Numbered from the stretch's first letter, positions 8,587-60,640 are shown. The stretch: 64,000 nucleotides of DNA from a virus (IMGVR_UViG_3300049472_000168:1-64000); one strand, 5' to 3'. Notes: generated by a model from the letters alone, not told the origin. Numbers and translations are program-made.

Positions 8587-8798
8587 TCAATCATTACACT
8601 AGATCCATACTTCTTTCGCACAGCATTGATATAGATGTCTACGGATTTATCTGACGCCTTGACCCCTTTTTGATGTAGCTTATTGGCTAAGGCATAGAGC
8701 TTTTCCGCTTCGGCCCAAAATCTATCCGCTTTATCGTTCTCACTTTGGGATTGTTTCCAGGCCGCTTCGATTTTTGGATATTTCTTGATTTTCTTCAT
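8553..8798 (-). CDS. Hypothetical, paralog of the N-terminal half of 23391..23825
   Basis: PKIEAAW..YINAV..YG..V.IDW.TG.I vs PKLEAAW..YVNAV..YG..VVINWGTGEI. Confidence 0.6.
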   Translation of the reverse strand: MKKIKKYPKIEAAWKQSQSENDKADRFWAEAEKLYALANKLHQKGVKASDKSVDIYINAVRKKYGSSVMIDWKTGKITICP

Positions 8799-9394
8799 TT
8801 TTTCTTCCTTGTCGAGGTCCTTTTTGTCTTAGGTACTACCTTCATGATGCCATCGGCAAATCCGTATTCAACTGTCTCTTTGGCACTAAAAAATGTCTCC
8901 ATCTCACATAGGGCCTTGACCTGTTCGGAGGTAACCGCTCCTCCAGATCTACCGGCTAGGACCCCGTAATACAGCAGAGATAGAGCTTTGACTTCGTCGG
9001 CCAAGGACAGGAGTTGGTCCGTTGTCATGTCCATAGCAATGGAGCCGTTGTGAATCATGAAGCGGCAATTCGGGGCCAGTAGCCTTTGGTCGCAGCCCTG
9101 AAGGATAAGGGTGGCAATGCTTTGGCATTCGCCGTAACACAGAGCGACTGTTTTGTTTTTGCAGAGCCTGAGGGCATCATAAATGGTCCAACCGGCCCCC
9201 TCGTAGCCGCCTGTTGAGGAAATGATCATAGTGATTGGTCCCCGGGACCTATCAAACTCACGGAGAGCAGCTACAATGGCCCCTGCTTTTTCTCCGTTGA
9301 CTTCACCGAAGAGAAAAACCTCTCGACGCTTCTCGTTGATAATTACCGAATTTGACTCCACCGAATTACTGTCTTTCTTGATTCTAGGCTTCAT
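8795..9394 (-). CDS. clpP: ClpP-like serine protease
   Basis: REVFLFGEV, ISSTGG, IYDAL, CQSIA (Ser), FMIH (His), FFSAKETVEYGFAD. Confidence 0.88.
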   Translation of the reverse strand: MKPRIKKDSNSVESNSVIINEKRREVFLFGEVNGEKAGAIVAALREFDRSRGPITMIISSTGGYEGAGWTIYDALRLCKNKTVALCYGECQSIATLILQGCDQRLLAPNCRFMIHNGSIAMDMTTDQLLSLADEVKALSLLYYGVLAGRSGGAVTSEQVKALCEMETFFSAKETVEYGFADGIMKVVPKTKRTSTRKKK

Positions 9395-10474: not shown

Positions 10475-11941
10475 TTATTCGACTTCCGAGATATCCGAAA
10501 TCAGGTGGCTCTGCTTCGCCCAGTACGGAGGTCTGTCCGTATTGGGTGTCCACTTGGTCTCAGAAAAGTTTAACCTGCCGACGGCATACTTGTCAAGGTA
10601 ACTGCCGAGGTTGCGGTCGTAAAATGCCATCCCAACGGTCCCGGTTCTGGACCCGTCTAGACGGAATTTGGCGATCCTCATAAATGTAGGGAGCCCTCCC
10701 TCGTATCCTAGGTCGGTGGCTGTAAAATTCCGACACGGTGCCAGCATCAGGCAGGTAGTCGCGATTTTGGTGATCTCAGAGCTGCCATGGAAATCGTCGA
10801 GTTCTGGGACCAGGGTCTTTGCAGATCCCTTCTTGAGATGGGCGATACAGATAATTGGAACCCCCAGGACTAGGGTAAGATGTCTCAGCTTCTTGACTAG
10901 CCTAGACATCTCGGAATTCTCGTTTGATTTTGAATCCAGATCCACGTAGTGGAGATGGTCCAGGATGATTAGGTCGGAATCCTTGTGGGCCTTGATGATT
11001 TCGCGATCCAAAGTGTCGAGGTCAAAGTCTCCGTTTTTTCGGTAATAGGTCTTCAGTGTCTTGTATTTTTCTTTGATCTCGACATCTGCCTCTGCGTTGA
11101 ATCTACCCAAACTGGCTTCATACATGTTATGACGCCATTCGGCATATCCAAAACTAGCCGAGGCCCCGGGATTCTCTTCGAGGTAGCGATTGACTAAGAT
11201 GCTGTACTTGATGCGTCTTTCGATTTCGAGATTCTCGGCCTCCAGGAAGAAGGCAGATACCCTGACTCCAAGGCTGGCATTATGCTTGGCAATGATTTTG
11301 GCGATTTCGGTCTTACCTACCCCCGTCTTTGCTCCGATTACGATTAGATCCTTCTTTGCGATCTTAATCAGGGCATCATCTAGAAAGCTGACACCATATC
11401 CTAGGGAGGTTTTTGCTTCTTCGGCTCGTTCCTCTGACTCCGAATCAATCCGAGTTGCCATCGATTCCATGCGGTCGATGCCGTCAGAACCAAAGTCAAA
11501 CTTCTGGAGCTGGACAGCCCCTGATTCCCAGAGGTCATATGCTTTGTCGTGGAGCCCTTTGTTGTAGGCCTCACCGATTTGGGTCGCCTGTTGGACAACA
11601 AATCTAGACTTCGCCCAGTCCTGAAGTTTGGCCTGGAGGATATCTAGACCGATCTGAGTCGCAGATGTCGCAAATTTCTGGAAGGCCTTGGCTTGAGCAG
11701 GACCGTCGATTGAATCCGCAGCAATTACGAAGGCCTCAATTTCCTTGAGCCTAGGAGGTCTTTTATATGCTTTCCGGAATTTTTGGATCTGGTCGAAGGC
11801 CTCGGACAAAACAGCAGACTTGAACCAGGCCTTGTCTACGCCGATATCGTCGAGGCGACCCCAGAGGTCCGGAACTTCTAAGGTATGTCCTAGGAGTGCT
11901 TCCTGGTGGAAGACGCTGAATTCTTTTTTTTCAGGAGTCAC
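10475..11941 (-). CDS. dnaB: DnaB-like replicative helicase
   Basis: Walker A GAKTGVGKT, FFLE, LIILDHLH, GSSEITKIA. Confidence 0.88.
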   Translation of the reverse strand: MTPEKKEFSVFHQEALLGHTLEVPDLWGRLDDIGVDKAWFKSAVLSEAFDQIQKFRKAYKRPPRLKEIEAFVIAADSIDGPAQAKAFQKFATSATQIGLDILQAKLQDWAKSRFVVQQATQIGEAYNKGLHDKAYDLWESGAVQLQKFDFGSDGIDRMESMATRIDSESEERAEEAKTSLGYGVSFLDDALIKIAKKDLIVIGAKTGVGKTEIAKIIAKHNASLGVRVSAFFLEAENLEIERRIKYSILVNRYLEENPGASASFGYAEWRHNMYEASLGRFNAEADVEIKEKYKTLKTYYRKNGDFDLDTLDREIIKAHKDSDLIILDHLHYVDLDSKSNENSEMSRLVKKLRHLTLVLGVPIICIAHLKKGSAKTLVPELDDFHGSSEITKIATTCLMLAPCRNFTATDLGYEGGLPTFMRIAKFRLDGSRTGTVGMAFYDRNLGSYLDKYAVGRLNFSETKWTPNTDRPPYWAKQSHLISDISEVE

Positions 11942-12402
11942 TGATTCCCTTCGAGACCATCGTTGTCTCCTACGATAGAAAACATTGTGGCCTTGTCAAT
12001 AGGTCTACAGGTTATTGCGAGTTCTTCAAAACAAGATGCCTTCAGAACATTACCTTCTCTACGGGTCGTGAAACCTCCTATACCAAAACCAAGACGGATA
12101 ACGTTGTCTCGAATAAAGGAAGTGAGTCTTTCGTCACCGTCATTCAGTCTACAGGTAACATAAATAAACGGATTACATTCAGTCTTGTTCCAATACATCC
12201 GTTGGCGGTCATTTTCGCAGTCTGAGAGAGTCAGGATCTTTTTGAGGTATGTGAGCCGACCAACAACAGCATCGTCCCTGTACTCCCATTTAAGAGGGAT
12301 CCCATCATTCCTGTTTATTTTGTGGCAGTCTACTCCTTCGATATCTAGGATTTCTCCAGAACGATCAATACACTGCGACGCAGCGATACCATCAACTGTC
12401 AT
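11938..12402 (-). CDS. Stand-alone paralog of the prohead protease domain, putative catalytic residues substituted
   Basis: Near-identical stretches to 52327 ORF N-terminus (AASQCID.SGEILDIEGVDC; SDCENDRQRMYW; NPFIYVTCRL). Confidence 0.8.
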   Translation of the reverse strand: MTVDGIAASQCIDRSGEILDIEGVDCHKINRNDGIPLKWEYRDDAVVGRLTYLKKILTLSDCENDRQRMYWNKTECNPFIYVTCRLNDGDERLTSFIRDNVIRLGFGIGGFTTRREGNVLKASCFEELAITCRPIDKATMFSIVGDNDGLEGNQ

Positions 12403-12416
12403 CTGTCTCCTTATTA

Positions 12417-12701
12417 CTACAGGGTTTTGTGATTGATGTCAATTGTGGCTTCGCAGAATCGGCCACCGGCAAAACAACGGGATCTGGTTTCTTGTTCCCG
12501 GAATAGCCCTGCCTTCCTCGCATACTCTACAGGCACTACTCGGAAGTTTCCTGGGGCACCTCCTATTTTGCTGAAGAAGTCCATTGCTCCAGAAACAGTG
12601 TCTTCAAATACTAGAGGACCGCAGCCGCTGTCCCAGACTCGACGATTAGTTGGAGATACAGGCTCCAGATACTCGATGACAACCCAGGTACTTGTATTCA
12701 T
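12417..12701 (-). CDS. Hypothetical protein
   Basis: Packed ORF. Confidence 0.5.
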   Translation of the reverse strand: MNTSTWVVIEYLEPVSPTNRRVWDSGCGPLVFEDTVSGAMDFFSKIGGAPGNFRVVPVEYARKAGLFREQETRSRCFAGGRFCEATIDINHKTL

Positions 12702-12982
12702 GGATTTTTAATTGACTTGGTCTGCTGGCAGGCTGGATATCTAGCCATTGCGGCCTCTGCATCTTCATATTTATCGAATTTCCCCAAGGTAACATCAGGT
12801 TTCCATGGAATATAAGCAGTTACCTCAGTCTTGGTACCAGAGTAGTCTAGTGTCAAATAGCAGTTTTTAATTTGATAGTCTGCCAACACTACTTGCCATG
12901 ACCCATATAGGAGTAAAGTCACCAATCCAAAGACCAGCAGGGCTATGGAAGAAAGAAAGATTTTGTCTACTATTTTCTGCAT
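12698..12982 (-). CDS. Hypothetical membrane protein
   Basis: One TM segment IFLSSIALLVFGLVTLLLYG. Confidence 0.55.
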   Translation of the reverse strand: MQKIVDKIFLSSIALLVFGLVTLLLYGSWQVVLADYQIKNCYLTLDYSGTKTEVTAYIPWKPDVTLGKFDKYEDAEAAMARYPACQQTKSIKNP

Positions 12983-12992
12983 TGTAACTTTT

Positions 12993-13949
12993 TCAGTGGA
13001 ACGGGTTAACAAAATATCCAGGATGAACCCTGGGAGACTCCATAATTGAGGCAGTTGCCTCATCAAGAGGCATAGCTCCTAAATCCTTGTAGATCCTCGT
13101 GTTGACCAGATAGGTTTCGTAGTCATGGAAGGTGTCAATTAGCTTTGTGATCTCAGTATGGGCGTCGGGGTCCAGGGCGATGTAGACTGACTTGACTCCA
13201 GAATTCTTGATGACCTCGATCTGTCCTTTGTTTATGGTTTTACCCATAGTTGCGACGTTGCCGCCAATAAAATGGGCTTTCAGCGCATCTATGGGTCCCT
13301 CACCGATAACTGCGGATTCTGCTGATACCAATCTGTTCTGGAACATTACGACCCGTGACCTTGGCATCCCTGGAGTTGACAGTTTCTCCAGGAACCTCGG
13401 AACTACTCCTGTTGCCCTCTCCTGCCAGCCGACGAGGAGTTCTCCCACATATACAGGAAAAACAACGGCGGTGGTATCCAGATTATATCTGATACCGTAT
13501 TCCATGGCAATTCCTAAAGGGATGCCTCGATTCTGTTCCAGATATTTTCTGCCCCGAACCGCAGATTTTTGATCCAGAGGAACGATATGAAGTGGCCAGA
13601 CCAGATCTGGAAGCGGACCTTCCTCTTCGGAATCTTCTTCTTCCTCAGTTCTGAATCCGAAGAGGACCTCTGAGGTCCCCTTAGGAGCCAGGTCGGTATA
13701 TATCAGGGATCTGACTTCATCAATTGGGATCCCTGCGATTTCCGCCAGTGCTTTTTCTGGCCTCCCTCCGAAACCATCGGATTCAGCACACACCCAGCAT
13801 TTAAACTGGGTACCGTCTCGATACATCCAGAGCTTGTCAGATTTCAGACATCGTGGACAGTCAAATACGTAACTCGACGTAGTCGTCTTGTAACTGAGTC
13901 CACGCTCCTGAATGAATGTCTTCAGGAGCGTGGGGTCTGCCGCTCTCAT
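12993..13949 (-). CDS. DNA primase (Zn-binding + TOPRIM)
   Basis: CPRC..CWVC Zn site, YL..RGI, EGPIDAL, IALDPDA, KDLG. Confidence 0.88.
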   Translation of the reverse strand: MRAADPTLLKTFIQERGLSYKTTTSSYVFDCPRCLKSDKLWMYRDGTQFKCWVCAESDGFGGRPEKALAEIAGIPIDEVRSLIYTDLAPKGTSEVLFGFRTEEEEDSEEEGPLPDLVWPLHIVPLDQKSAVRGRKYLEQNRGIPLGIAMEYGIRYNLDTTAVVFPVYVGELLVGWQERATGVVPRFLEKLSTPGMPRSRVVMFQNRLVSAESAVIGEGPIDALKAHFIGGNVATMGKTINKGQIEVIKNSGVKSVYIALDPDAHTEITKLIDTFHDYETYLVNTRIYKDLGAMPLDEATASIMESPRVHPGYFVNPFH

Positions 13950-36699: not shown

Positions 36700-36883
36700 G
36701 GACATAATGTCCGCTTTTGAGGACATAATGTCCGCTTTTGAGGACATAATGTCCTACCCCATAGGACATCTTGTCCGCTTTTGAGGACATCTTGTCCGCT
36801 GTATATCTGTTCAGTAGAGGACAAGATGTCCGCTTTTGGAACATCGAGTCAAGGATTGAAGAGGACATAATGTCCGCTTTTGA
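36700..36883. repeat. Iteron-like array, putative replication origin or operator
   Basis: 7 copies of palindromic GGACA-NNN-TGTCC, most followed by GCTTTTGA, at 36700, 36721, 36742, 36764, 36785, 36819, 36863; located at the strand switch. Confidence 0.8.
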
Positions 36884-51760: not shown

Positions 51761-52327
51761 ATGGGTATTATTTATGGGTTATTGGACCCCCGGACCAAGG
51801 AACTCCGATATGTAGGGAAGACAGAAGGAACTCTCAAAAAGAGACTCCGGGAACATCTTTCTAGGGCCCGACATGGGTCTAGGAGGGGTCACGTTTATGC
51901 GTGGCTTCGGGCTATCGATCTGAATCCACTTACAGAGATTTTAGAAGAAAATCTGAGCGGAGGAGATCTTGATGACGCCGAAAAATTTTGGATTTCATCC
52001 GCCCTTTCTTCTGGAGCCAAGCTGGTCAACCACACCTTTGGAGGAGAGGGTTGCAAGGGATATAAACACACTGAAGAGACAAGAAAAAAGATGTCCGGAA
52101 GCAAGGCAGGTAAGTTGAGAGGACCTAGATATGATATTCGTAAATTGACTGACAGTGAGGTCCAAAAAGTGGTCTCTTTGTATTCCGAAGGAAAAAGCAG
52201 CAGGGCAATAGCGGAGATTTTAGGCAATTTTAGCCAAACTGGAATCAGAAAAGTTCTCGCCAGAGAAGGAGTTCAGCTCCGTAAGGCAGTTGTCGGACGG
52301 TGGTTAACTGAGAAGGGGTCGAAATAA
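51761..52327 (+). CDS. GIY-YIG homing endonuclease with NUMOD3 and HTH
   Basis: IIYGL.DP..RYVGKT, R..EH, E..WI, N.T.GGEG..G.KHTEETRKKMS. Confidence 0.85.
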   Translation: MGIIYGLLDPRTKELRYVGKTEGTLKKRLREHLSRARHGSRRGHVYAWLRAIDLNPLTEILEENLSGGDLDDAEKFWISSALSSGAKLVNHTFGGEGCKGYKHTEETRKKMSGSKAGKLRGPRYDIRKLTDSEVQKVVSLYSEGKSSRAIAEILGNFSQTGIRKVLAREGVQLRKAVVGRWLTEKGSK

Positions 52328-55300
52328 TGGATATTAAAAGCATTAAATCCAGGACCGGAATGATAATCGACGGTGTTGCTGCGTCGCAGTGTATTGATAG
52401 TTCTGGAGAAATCCTAGATATCGAAGGAGTAGACTGCGCTCAAATGGAGGAGGCGGGCGGAATTCTCTTGAACTGGGAACACAAGGACGGGAGCGAAGGT
52501 GCCGATACCATTGTAGGTAAGGTGACTTATCTCAAGAAGATTCTGTCGGCTTCGGACTGTGAAAACGACCGTCAGCGGATGTACTGGGATAAGATAAAGC
52601 AAAATCCGTTTATTTACGTTACCTGTAGGCTGTTTGATGGTAGCGGTCATAAGAAGGCTGAAGCTATTGCAGCTATCATCAGAGACAATGTAGCCCACGA
52701 TGAGCCTCTGGCTTGTAGATTTTCCATTGAAGGTTCTACCACCTCTAAGGAGGGAAACACCTTAAAGGCCTCTATTTTCAAGAGACTCGCCATAACACTT
52801 GCTCCTTGTAATAAGACCGCAATATCTGGCCTTCTGAAGGACAATGCTATTGATACTCAAAAAAGTGAAGACCAGTTTGTCAACCCCGAATTCCGTCGTC
52901 TTGGCGGCTCAGTAGAACTGAATTACAATCCCGTTGTTGATTCTCAGACGGAGGCCTCGCTGCGTCTGATTTCGGCGGCAACTGCGATCAGGACTCTGAG
53001 GAAAGCAATATCCCCGATTAAAGATAAAGTCAAGTGTCCAAGTTGTGAGGATGGGGAGTCTTTCCACTATGTGTCTAGAATTGGGTTTGATGCCAAGAAA
53101 GGATACACACCTCCTAAGAAGCCTCTGTATATGTGTGATTCTTGTGGAGACATCCACGAAGATCCCGACATCAAAAAGGCTATCGAAGCCGGTAGTCTTG
53201 ACGGTGCCCCAAGCTCTAGGACCCAGGGAGCCGCGCTCCAACGTGAGGATGCGAGAAATACAGCTAAAGCCGTTCTCAGGGACTATGGTTGGGGACGGAA
53301 TTTTAAGAGGTCTGAATTCAGGGCGTTCTCCAAAGCCAAGCTACCAGAGATGTCTGATGACTTCCTGGACCACTTCACAGATATCGCAGAATCCTATGCG
53401 GTGAAGAAGGCTCTGCAAAAGGCTTCTTCTTTGATCAAAAAGGATACCTCTGAGGTAGAATCTGTCCAGGCTCCAGAGGCTGTCCCTGTAGAAGCCAAAC
53501 CGAAGTCTCCTAAACCTGCTGGTACCTTCAGAGGTAAAAAACTGAAGCCTAATGAAGGCCTGATATCTTCTAGCTTCGACGAAAAGAAGGGTGTCCTGAG
53601 AACCCCTATAGGGAATTTTAAGGCCTATCTCCCGAGTCATGACGGTCCCGAGGCTGCTGAGAACTACCAGAAGATCTTGAGCCATCCCGATATCGAGGAT
53701 GCCATGGATCACGCCATGACGAACTGGAGCAAGGTCCACAAGCTGACCAAGGCCGGAAAGCTGCCTCCGGAAGTCTTGATGCACGCCGTTCTTTTTGCTC
53801 AGCTTAGTCCAAACAAGCCGGTTCCAACTCAAGAGATCCAATACGCCAGACTCGTCGATGCCATGAACCAGTCTGGATTGGACCCGAGAAAGCCCGGATT
53901 CGAGGCAATCCTCCCCCACATCAAAGCCCTGGATTCCGCAACGGTTCCTCCTGTTACTGGAGGCCAAACCATTGCAACCCATCCGGCGTATAGACAGAGA
54001 AATGACTCAGATGTTACAGGTCGTAAGGCCGGAGATCTTCTGTCTACCAGTCCTTTGCTATCCGATGGCGTCAAAAATATGTCGCAATACTACAAGCTCC
54101 ATGACGGCCTACTAGATGTGATGTCGAGGCATCGTCACAACATGATGGGCGCCGTTTCCGAACTGATGGATGCCAAAACGGCCAAAACCAATTTTGACAA
54201 CGTCAATAGAGCAAGAGCCAAAGCAGGACTTCCTCCGAAGGAAGGCAACCCTGTATCGATTCCCGGAATCAAAGTCGAAACAGGCCTCTACACCTGGGGT
54301 ATGTTGGGCGGCGGAAATTCAGTAGTCCCAGACACACATTTTATCAGGAATGCCTTCGGTCTCGATATGCATAAGGATTCCGATACCTTATCTAGATTGA
54401 AAGATATCATGTGGTCCCCGACCAACATGCAGAGCATTATGGGTCCGTATAATCGCTGGTACCAGAAGAATCATCCCGCGATGAAATATACCCTGGAGCA
54501 TCCGAAGTGGGGCTCCATCTTCGAGAAACCCGAGGATGCCACGTTCCCGGCATTCTGGCGTCATTGGTTGACAATCAGGCCTCATGAAAAGTTCTTGGGG
54601 ATGCCAAATCTTGCCATGCAGGAAGGTACCAACCATGCTCCGTTCTGGGAGTCGATTGCACCTATGTTAAATAAGGCAGACATCCATGATTCCACAGTCC
54701 CCTACAGGACAGCCATGGTCCATCAGCAATATGTCAAGGATTTTGGTGAGATCCCTGCAATGTTTCTCTACTACCACCACTTGGTTCCTCATCTTCTCGA
54801 TGCCGCCAGACATCGGGAATCGACAGGGCGAGACCTCCAGTTCCTGGCTAAGTCTAGACAGATTGAAGCCGAATTAATTGAACTAAGAAAGACTGTAGAT
54901 TCAGTCATTTCAGGTTATGCCTTCGAGCCTCCAGAGGTCCACGAAGTCAATCTCAGTATCGGTGGACGCCGTCACCCTGCGGGTCGTTTCATGATTCATA
55001 ACGGCAGACTCCATCACCTGGAGGACTACCACGGCGTCCTGGATGCAATGATTCCTGAGGGCGATGTCGATACCACTACGATCAGCAGATTGCATGGTAT
55101 TAAATGGAGTCCTAACTTCAGGGTCCAGAGACACTACCACGAGGATCCAGCAGAACCCGAACAGATTCCAGTTGAGGTCAAACCGCAACCACTGCCTCAG
55201 AGGCCCCCTGTATTTGAATACCACAGACCAGGGATGGCTAGACCTCATACCGTTGAGTTCAGCAACGGCAAGGCAGCTTTGGATGGCAGAGAACTGTCCG

Positions 55301-56049
55301 ATGCCGAGACCAAACTGCTCCTCAGCAATGCTGATAAAGGTCTCGCTACTCTTCGATATAAGTCGCAGCCTACACCTCTCAATAAGACAGAAGAAGACCT
55401 AGATCCAGAAGGTGCTCTACAACATATCCGAAATGCTGTAGCTGCCGGTCATATCCATCCCGATGTCGAAAGGGCTCTGACCCGTCACATCTACGAAGAC
55501 AAAATGACTCCCGGATTAGGCAATAAATATGCTTATCAGCAATTCAGAGCCAAGAATAAGCCAGGAGTCTACATCAGTGCAGATAGCAACGACTTCAAGG
55601 CAATTAATGATACCTATGGTCACGATGCCGGAGACCAAGCCATCATGGGTGTCGGTAACGCTCTTAGATCTGCTGCCGAAAAGGTAGGTACCGTGAAACT
55701 CTTCAGGCCGGGAGGCGACGAATTCGTAATTCATGCCCCTAGTTATGAAGAGGCCTCAAAATTCATGAGACATGCCACGAAGCATCTGGACCAGGTTCCC
55801 GCTGTTGGTGGTGTCCATAAACACTCGATGAGTTTCGGTCTAGGCAACGACTTCGCCACTGCTGATAAGGCCCTGTATCATGCCAAGGAACAGAAGAAAG
55901 ATCCTACCACTGGTGGTAGAATGTTTCCCGTAGGAAAGACCCCACACATGGCCCATTCCTTGGTTCCTGATAACGCAGGAGCTATCAAGCTCCACGACGA
56001 GTCGCCTCCGGTTCAGACCCTACCTAAGCAGGCAGCGGCTCCGGTTTAG
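52327..56049 (+). CDS. Prohead protease polyprotein with Zn-ribbon, HhH-GPD-like and GGDEF domains
   Basis: N-terminal G.A..D..GE..NWEH..FSIEG; CPSC/CDSC; PGI..T..PDTHF.R; C-terminal DSNDFKAINDTYGHDAGD..RPGGDEF..ADKALYHAK. Confidence 0.85.
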   Translation: MDIKSIKSRTGMIIDGVAASQCIDSSGEILDIEGVDCAQMEEAGGILLNWEHKDGSEGADTIVGKVTYLKKILSASDCENDRQRMYWDKIKQNPFIYVTCRLFDGSGHKKAEAIAAIIRDNVAHDEPLACRFSIEGSTTSKEGNTLKASIFKRLAITLAPCNKTAISGLLKDNAIDTQKSEDQFVNPEFRRLGGSVELNYNPVVDSQTEASLRLISAATAIRTLRKAISPIKDKVKCPSCEDGESFHYVSRIGFDAKKGYTPPKKPLYMCDSCGDIHEDPDIKKAIEAGSLDGAPSSRTQGAALQREDARNTAKAVLRDYGWGRNFKRSEFRAFSKAKLPEMSDDFLDHFTDIAESYAVKKALQKASSLIKKDTSEVESVQAPEAVPVEAKPKSPKPAGTFRGKKLKPNEGLISSSFDEKKGVLRTPIGNFKAYLPSHDGPEAAENYQKILSHPDIEDAMDHAMTNWSKVHKLTKAGKLPPEVLMHAVLFAQLSPNKPVPTQEIQYARLVDAMNQSGLDPRKPGFEAILPHIKALDSATVPPVTGGQTIATHPAYRQRNDSDVTGRKAGDLLSTSPLLSDGVKNMSQYYKLHDGLLDVMSRHRHNMMGAVSELMDAKTAKTNFDNVNRARAKAGLPPKEGNPVSIPGIKVETGLYTWGMLGGGNSVVPDTHFIRNAFGLDMHKDSDTLSRLKDIMWSPTNMQSIMGPYNRWYQKNHPAMKYTLEHPKWGSIFEKPEDATFPAFWRHWLTIRPHEKFLGMPNLAMQEGTNHAPFWESIAPMLNKADIHDSTVPYRTAMVHQQYVKDFGEIPAMFLYYHHLVPHLLDAARHRESTGRDLQFLAKSRQIEAELIELRKTVDSVISGYAFEPPEVHEVNLSIGGRRHPAGRFMIHNGRLHHLEDYHGVLDAMIPEGDVDTTTISRLHGIKWSPNFRVQRHYHEDPAEPEQIPVEVKPQPLPQRPPVFEYHRPGMARPHTVEFSNGKAALDGRELSDAETKLLLSNADKGLATLRYKSQPTPLNKTEEDLDPEGALQHIRNAVAAGHIHPDVERALTRHIYEDKMTPGLGNKYAYQQFRAKNKPGVYISADSNDFKAINDTYGHDAGDQAIMGVGNALRSAAEKVGTVKLFRPGGDEFVIHAPSYEEASKFMRHATKHLDQVPAVGGVHKHSMSFGLGNDFATADKALYHAKEQKKDPTTGGRMFPVGKTPHMAHSLVPDNAGAIKLHDESPPVQTLPKQAAAPV

Positions 56050-59929: not shown

Positions 59930-60381
59930 CGATCCTGCTCTTTGGATCTGAACTCCTCAGCCAATTGTTGCAATCTGCTAGGTGGCAGTATTTCGGGGAA
60001 CTCTCTGAATCCCGGAAGGTCCTCCATCGCCCTGAGGCCGTCATAAATTTCTCTTGAATCGATTAGATCAAATCCGGTTCGGCTCCGGAAGCTACGGATG
60101 AAGTCTAGAGATCTGCCGTTGCGAACGGCTTCCATCTCATCTGGTGTCATTTCTCCTGCGAGCCCGATGCCGATCTTTTTTCGGCGTCTTGTCTCTGCGA
60201 TAGACTCCAGGATACTGTGATCATAACATACATGATATGCTTGCTTCTGGACTTCCTCCAAAGGAGCCCAGCCTTCACCTAGAGTCTTTTCACCGATCCC
60301 ACTCTTGGTGAGCTGTGACGCAACCCAATAGACTCGCTCTGGGTCGCGATCTTCAAAATGAATTTCAATTTTGTAAGGCAT
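59884..60381 (-). CDS. Hypothetical; N-terminus paralogous to 60384..60602
   Basis: MPYKIEI.F..R..WVAS.LTK..TLG.G..C.DHS shared. Confidence 0.6.
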   Translation of the reverse strand: MPYKIEIHFEDRDPERVYWVASQLTKSGIGEKTLGEGWAPLEEVQKQAYHVCYDHSILESIAETRRRKKIGIGLAGEMTPDEMEAVRNGRSLDFIRSFRSRTGFDLIDSREIYDGLRAMEDLPGFREFPEILPPSRLQQLAEEFRSKEQDRCNSCPTQPSDAEGS

Positions 60382-60383
60382 CG

Positions 60384-60602
60384 TTACTTCCCTTCTTCTT
60401 TCATTTTTGGTCTCATTGAGAGACTGTGGTCCCAACACAGAAAAGTAGCCTCCGTATGTGCTTTTTCAGCAGAGTCTGCGAAGCCTTGCCCCAGAGTCTG
60501 CGAAGCCTTGCCCCAGAGTCTTTTGGTGAGATGTGACGCAACCCAGGAGATTCGGTCTGAACCAAAAGAGTCAAAACAGATTTCAATTTTGTAAGGCATC
60601 AT
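60384..60602 (-). CDS. Hypothetical, tandem paralog
   Basis: As above; AAGGA RBS. Confidence 0.6.
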   Translation of the reverse strand: MMPYKIEICFDSFGSDRISWVASHLTKRLWGKASQTLGQGFADSAEKAHTEATFLCWDHSLSMRPKMKEEGK

Positions 60603-60640
60603 TTCCTTCTTTCCTTTTATGTGTGATTTGCCATAAATAA

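Follow-up and report, generated by a model that had tools for sequence, protein, structure and literature searches.

Capsid-maturation serine proteases of the gp21/assemblin fold are gathered in the MEROPS families S21, S77, S78 and S80, with T4 gp21 in S77 (PDB 5jbl) and the herpesvirus assemblins in S21. Dead enzymes, for their part, can regulate their active relatives, the fold and purifying selection being kept and the catalytic residues lost. Here we describe a predicted pseudoprotease, a dead paralog of a capsid-maturation protease domain, in IMGVR_UViG_3300049472_000168, a 138-kb IMG/VR virus record (about 84% complete) from an uncultured phage. The window, that is the whole stretch analysed, covers positions 1-64000 (64,000 nucleotides, nt) of this record, and the paralog is encoded by the open reading frame (ORF) at 11938-12402 on the minus strand, which is open throughout and has 154 amino acids (aa); its description draws on the sequence itself, the invariant columns of the family, AlphaFold models and selection analysis. 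The head module of the source genome is similar to that of Myxococcus phage Mx1, and the source phage is a large uncultured relative of Mx1. The fold of T4 gp21 and the assemblins is common to the paralog and to the resident copy of the domain. Compared with these known proteases, the resident copy has both the catalytic His and Ser, in that order, and a position between portal and capsid genes, with no sequence match to PF03420 or PF04586, while the paralog is without both catalytic residues and is a free-standing 154-aa protein encoded in the replication gene cluster.

The only published parallel that we found is the gp117 kind, namely SPN3US gp117, 201phi2-1 gp206 and PhiPA3 gp143, which are diverged and truncated prohead-protease paralogs in phiKZ-like giant phages (Ali et al. 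2017, PMC5694885). Proteins of this kind, termed unprecedented by their authors in 2017, have 136-145 aa in some phages, lie away from the real protease and lack its C-terminal part; their catalytic His is not aligned, and their function is unknown (PMC5694885). Like them, the present paralog is a second, truncated copy of its own phage's protease fold outside the head module. The differences are that gp117 has conserved counterparts in several phages and retains Ser and Asp, whereas the paralog has lost both His and Ser and is present in one genome only. Being sister to the domain of its own genome, with gp117 compared by description, the paralog represents an independent duplication in a different protease family. 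The other close reference is Mx1 itself, whose protein WNM70322.1 (OR576727.2) is the ortholog of the resident 1240-aa protein, with a protease domain 48.6% identical and the same order of terminase, portal, protease and capsid genes. Mx1 differs in having one copy and no dead paralog, the nucleotide cyclase as a separate gene, and no homing endonuclease upstream.

The relationship within the source genome is clear from BLASTP, in which the paralog matches residues 12-173 of the 1240-aa ORF with 56% identity (E 7e-61). Together with the fold of the resident domain, this bears out an earlier note on this DNA, which had proposed a paralog of the head-maturation protease domain. The 1240-aa ORF (52327-56049, plus strand) encodes a late protein with an N-terminal protease domain (about 52360-52845) and a C-terminal GGDEF cyclase (PF00990, E 5.5e-17), assigned from these matches, the fold and the annotation of the Mx1 homolog. 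Its start is perhaps Met12 (52360) instead of 52327: this is where the paralog starts and where about one in three of the listed family matches begins, and most of the other listed matches have only a leader of 5-6 residues, M-x-x-S-T-G, before the Met12 position. The genome holds only these two copies of the domain. Homology between them is confined to the ORF, the upstream sequences being unrelated, ribosome-binding sites included, and a search near the paralog for copied flanking DNA, including the homing-endonuclease gene that precedes the resident copy, found none. In the trees, the paralog is the sister of its own genome's resident domain with a support of 96, or 93 when the columns of a 60-nt conversion tract are removed, and its terminal branch measures 0.85-1.4, roughly 18-28 times that of the resident (0.05). 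The resident copy is thus the source lineage of the paralog. These sequence comparisons indicate a duplication within this phage lineage followed by protein evolution roughly 18-28 times faster, with the reservation that earlier conversion events could have made the sister grouping and could mask a greater age.

The loss of the catalytic residues is best seen against the family. Of the 236 family domains that were aligned, 235 have His52, 235 have Ser133, 234 have His108 and 230 have Glu135, His52 and Ser133 being the two most invariant polar columns. Among the 236, the paralog is the sole exception at His52, where it has Tyr, and at Ser133, where it has Gly; in addition, its His108 is deleted and its Glu135 is Gly. 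The earlier note had read the resident NWEH as KWEY and FSIEG as FGIGG in the paralog and presumed both positions to be catalytic; the two columns indeed turn out to be invariant (235/236 each), and both are lost. His108 may not be essential, because it varies in the most divergent members. When 64 short members are added, giving 300, the Ser is lost in the paralog only, and the His is replaced at the aligned column in the paralog and in two others, P0290 and P0249. P0290 (320 aa, from an 8.3-kb JGI contig) has KWTDNH for NWEH, with a His two residues later and the Ser kept; this may be a register shift and not an inactivation, and from its sequence the protein is probably active. P0249, known from a 1-kb contig, has Pro at the His column. 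Three stretches of exactly 5 codons each, corresponding to loops around the cleft, are also deleted from the paralog: one follows the His, one is at the G-H-x-x-A turn and one precedes the Ser-bearing strand. On the whole, it retains 28 of the 38 columns that are conserved in at least 90% of the family, and the ten lost (S25, N49, H52, H108, A111, A115, A116, S133, E135 and N162) are concentrated at active-site columns (Fisher P 0.014).

Despite these losses, the fold appears to be kept. The AlphaFold model of the paralog has a predicted local distance difference test score (pLDDT) of 92.3 and keeps the order of strands and helices, with one helix shorter, a model that rests on an alignment of active homologs, which favours a retained fold. 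It aligns with the varicella-zoster virus (VZV) protease at Z 9.6 (111 aa, root mean square deviation (rmsd) 2.8) and with T4 gp21 at Z 9.2 (111 aa, rmsd 2.6), against 5.3 or less for unrelated folds. The model of the resident domain has a pLDDT of 93. Foldseek relates it to the herpesvirus assemblins (human cytomegalovirus (HCMV) protease, E 6e-4) and to T4 gp21, and VIA-align places T4 gp21 at the top with Z 11.2 (126 residues, rmsd 3.0), followed by the herpes proteases at Z 7-10 and then by an unrelated fold at Z 5.

The domain was identified by fold comparison only. Scans of Pfam (threshold E<=0.1) and PHROGs give no protease family for the paralog or for the resident N-terminal domain, PF03420 (S77) and PF04586 (S78) have no match in the 138-kb genome at E<=1, and PDB sequence searches, both single-sequence and profile, give nothing relevant. 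Membership of the Peptidase S78/HK97 family, which the earlier note had named for comparison, is therefore unconfirmed, since there is no library match to Pfam S78 or S77 and the closest folds are those of T4 gp21 and the herpesvirus assemblins. The gene order of the head module is large terminase, a 321-aa ORF, portal, a MuF-like ORF, a GIY-YIG homing endonuclease, the resident protease gene and the major head protein, and the Mx1 ortholog is annotated as a 'putative prohead protease'. According to the predicted fold, the resident N-terminal domain is a capsid-maturation protease of the gp21/assemblin class.

The family to which the domain belongs, here termed Mx1-type, is large, has no name and falls in the structural class of gp21; searched exhaustively with a profile, it comprises 783 clusters at 50% identity (E<=1e-3). 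The paralog matches the family profile built without it over residues 1-152, while its E of 2e-87 came from a profile that contained the paralog itself. In nearly all members the domain forms the N-terminal part of a long protein, mostly of 500-1900 aa, whose enzyme cargo varies; among the members P0002-P0121, the C-terminal cargo includes GGDEF, PI3/PI4-kinase-like PF00454, ADP-ribosyltransferase PF03496, PF18905, PF18760, NUDIX and GNAT acetyltransferase. Unlike this usual N-terminal arrangement, the paralog is free-standing. A few short members exist, and all of them have Ser where the column is covered.

The age of the paralog differs between the gene and one part of it. The earlier note spoke of a recent duplicate on the basis of about 60 nt that match the region around 52378-52437 in inverted orientation with one mismatch. 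Such a match is present: the tract at 12325-12384 (minus strand), near the 5' end of the paralog gene, is identical at 59 of 60 nt to 52378-52437 (plus strand) in the resident copy. The two copies lie about 40 kb apart in inverted orientation and consist of two identical runs of 21 and 38 bases, with a single mismatch, CGT/AGT, that changes Arg/Ser. Within the tract, 19/19 same-residue codons are identical, compared with 52% over the rest of the gene (P about 1e-6), and there are no synonymous differences. Outside the tract, the nucleotide identity is 62%, the proportion of nonsynonymous differences (pN) is 0.27 and that of synonymous differences (pS) is 0.77, which is saturated. Synonymous saturation outside the tract and no synonymous change inside it show that the duplication is old and that the tract is a recent gene conversion. 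Therefore, recency holds for the 60-nt tract and fails for the gene as a whole. The one difference in the tract, from Ser25 to Arg at a conserved Ser, postdates the conversion.

The resident copy of the tract begins 51 nt downstream of a GIY-YIG homing-endonuclease gene (51761-52327, plus strand; phrog_314, E 6e-13) and ends 110 nt downstream of it; this gene lies between the MuF-like gene and the protease gene, and its stop abuts the first ATG of the 1240-aa ORF. Mx1 has no homing endonuclease at this place and has four small minus-strand ORFs instead. Breaks near homing-endonuclease genes are repaired by copying, and ectopic repair of a break at this gene is a possible source of the conversion tract. 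As an RNA element, the tract folds unremarkably (z -1.2 to -2.0), and no other repeat is common to the paralog and resident regions. Elsewhere in the window, we observed a pair of direct repeats of about 100 nt that are 74% identical (60302-60407 and 60520-60618), and an exact 23-nt direct repeat (36719-36741 and 36861-36883) near the divergence of the leftward and rightward gene blocks.

Selection on the paralog was estimated in several ways. The ratio of nonsynonymous to synonymous substitution rates (dN/dS) is 0.14-0.26 over four estimators; in the bootstrap, dS was computable in 768 of 2000 replicates, none of which reached a dN/dS of 1. In a neutral simulation, the observed number and spectrum of substitutions were placed randomly on the resident sequence in 20000 runs. 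Only 3.2% of the simulated copies were still open, and the expected amino-acid identity was 44% with a maximum of 54%, against the 61% observed. All three deletions of the paralog are in frame. Neutral evolution, which the earlier note had named as the outcome that would speak against its reading, thus does not agree with the low dN/dS, the open frame and the in-frame deletions, and neutral decay of the paralog appears unlikely from these sequence data. Coupling to dnaB could keep the frame intact but would leave the residues unprotected. Our analysis supports that the paralog is a pseudoprotease kept by purifying selection and not debris; judged from the sequence and the model, its catalytic residues are lost and its predicted fold and purifying selection are kept, as in recognised pseudoenzymes.

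The gene sits in a setting far from that of the resident copy. It is preceded by the Shine-Dalgarno sequence AAGGAG (12407-12412, minus strand), which is read directly from the sequence 4 nt 5' of the ATG and has no counterpart upstream of the resident copy. At its other end, the TGA stop overlaps the GTG start of the gene for a DnaB-like replicative helicase (10475-11941, minus strand; PF03796, E 7e-17) as GTGA. The intact ORF translationally coupled to dnaB in the replication gene cluster, as the earlier note had it, is thus confirmed. Located between the primase and DnaB genes, the paralog does not share the head-module position, from portal to major capsid protein, and this gene position alone suggests an early timing. 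On the 5' side there are two small ORFs of unknown function and the primase gene, and on the 3' side follow DnaB, a DNA methylase-like ORF and ClpP. In the slot between primase and DnaB (12417-13066, minus strand), an ORF of 122 aa with a hydrophobic helix and another of 94 aa come before the dead protease. The ClpP-family gene (8795-9394, minus strand; PF00574, E 4e-26) is located just downstream of DnaB, as it is in a relative (L005, 6401-7057), and ClpP is a second, unrelated protease in the replication gene cluster of this phage. A scan of 8.5-16.5 kb for consensus promoters and terminators found sites no commoner than in shuffled sequence. Overall, the paralog has good translation signals and occupies an accessory slot of the replication gene cluster whose content can be swapped.

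Below we report how widely the paralog occurs. Mx1 has one copy of the domain, and so has a closer relative (G001, DnaB 59% identical), in which the slot between primase and DnaB holds a single 142-aa MORN-repeat-like gene (L005, 4576-5004) abutting the DnaB start. One copy each is also present in 15 related IMG/VR genomes (128-182 kb; 12 with a completeness of at least 90%); genome G009 gives a further 44-aa match that is not significant (E 0.004). No contig carries more than one of the 80 IMG/VR family loci. No further member without the Ser came up in two protein-database searches, a word-based search with the paralog among proteins of 84-270 aa found itself only, and a single-sequence scan of IMG/VR with the paralog found nothing. 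The paralog is therefore a singleton, absent as a second copy from 17 related genomes (15 from IMG/VR, Mx1 and G001).

What such a protein may do can be proposed from its features. The paralog would not cut, and would act as a binding mimic of the free protease domain. Cleft residues have been trimmed besides the catalytic loss, which makes kept protein-protein contacts likelier than substrate binding; the paralog would most likely associate with the real protease domain or with the docking partner of that domain in the procapsid. Herpes proteases need dimerisation. Inside the prohead, T4 gp21 works as an oligomer (PMC9958956). If a dead subunit were produced ahead of the late genes, it could thus join or cap the real protease, or fill its docking site, and proteolysis would be delayed or limited until heads assemble, as a dominant-negative or timing control. 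In the close clade, a K|[SA]E motif is found 8-10 residues after the domain, and the paralog ends at that point, so that it resembles the released, mature protease domain; from the sequence, the copy takes in the whole domain from its start codon and closes at a probable Lys release site that follows directly. The likeness to dead regulatory enzymes lies in the kept fold and selection, and binding to the partners of the active enzyme is our proposal. We give the reading of the pseudoprotease as a binding brake or timing control on the resident protease a probability of roughly 0.3-0.45. Three points weigh against it. The dN/dS value averages over the whole history, so that early constraint followed by recent decay is compatible with it in part; the open frame could be partly selected through the translational coupling to dnaB; and, with the paralog being a singleton, its value is not readable from conservation across phages.

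In the opposite view, the paralog is a decaying relic, a former second protease that lost its activity not long ago and now drifts, its frame held open only by the coupling to DnaB. The singleton status with no ortholog in the 17 related genomes, the branch 18-28 times that of the resident, the stop/start overlap with dnaB and a G+C content at third codon positions (GC3) below that of the neighbouring genes would all fit such a relic. It is nevertheless hard to reconcile with pN of 0.27 against pS of 0.77 and the resulting dN/dS, or with an amino-acid identity above that of all 20000 neutral simulations, where coupling protects the frame only; moreover, the losses fall on active-site columns while 28 of 38 core columns stay, the three 5-codon deletions are clean, and the gene has its own strong Shine-Dalgarno site. 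We consider the relic a rather improbable account. The idea that the paralog is still a protease by means of other residues fares far worse, and we give it almost no credence. It could call on the kept fold, on Tyr in place of His and on Asp in place of Asn162. The nucleophile Ser and the adjacent Glu are both Gly, however, the general-base His is Tyr and the second near-invariant His is deleted, and with no orthologs there is no conserved alternative Ser/His pair.

A different proposal concerns host defence. The earlier note had inferred a decoy or dominant-negative function, and we regard this as plausible in our analysis, because the cyclic-oligonucleotide-based antiphage signalling system (CBASS) has been published to sense prohead-protease activity. 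As an anti-defence decoy, the dead domain would be made before the real protease and would bind a host sensor of prohead-protease activity, such as the protease-cleavable activation loop of a CBASS CD-NTase, shielding it from cleavage or titrating it. Cleavage by prohead proteases activates CBASS CD-NTases, T4 gp21 alone being sufficient (bioRxiv 10.64898/2026.03.04.709575), and CBASS escape mutations map to prohead proteases (bioRxiv 10.1101/2023.05.21.541620). The swappable slot between primase and DnaB, occupied by a MORN-repeat-like gene in a relative, and the lineage specificity of the gene also fit a host-specific arms race. A substrate trap needs an intact groove, however, and the paralog has lost the Glu next to the nucleophile position together with N49, H108 and three loops of the cleft; the decoy on its own is in our judgement a minor candidate. 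It may be asked, finally, whether the 60-nt inverted repeat is itself what is selected, either as a recombination site inverting the 40-kb segment or as a shared RNA or DNA operator. Its 21- and 38-base identical runs do stand inverted about 40 kb apart near the 5' ends of both genes, where crossing over would exchange their early and late contexts. Against this, the RNA fold has a z of only -1.2 to -2.0, the tract coincides with the most conserved protein segment, an inversion would make DnaB late and the capsid genes early, which is probably harmful, and a single recent conversion event suffices, no other repeat being found between the two regions. Selection on the repeat itself is accordingly a very unlikely explanation, and the binding brake on the resident protease is the reading that we prefer.

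The finding bears on how phages control head maturation. Recent work has shown that CBASS immunity is triggered by head-maturation proteases, and how they are silenced before assembly is poorly understood; a dead protease domain that stands free, is under selection and is produced from the replication cluster makes an obvious candidate brake or shield. As a wider and rather speculative possibility, phages may repeatedly make early, catalytically dead copies of their head proteases, either against protease-sensing immunity (e.g. CBASS activation-loop cleavage) or as brakes before the procapsid, with the present paralog as an independent example in which gene conversion would keep the N-terminal segment matched to the active enzyme. 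If the paralog has no effect, it would be a lineage-specific curiosity. As a gene history, it presents a clean example of how a phage pseudoenzyme originates, by duplication of one domain, trimming of the cleft, fast yet constrained evolution, and occasional conversion with the parent.

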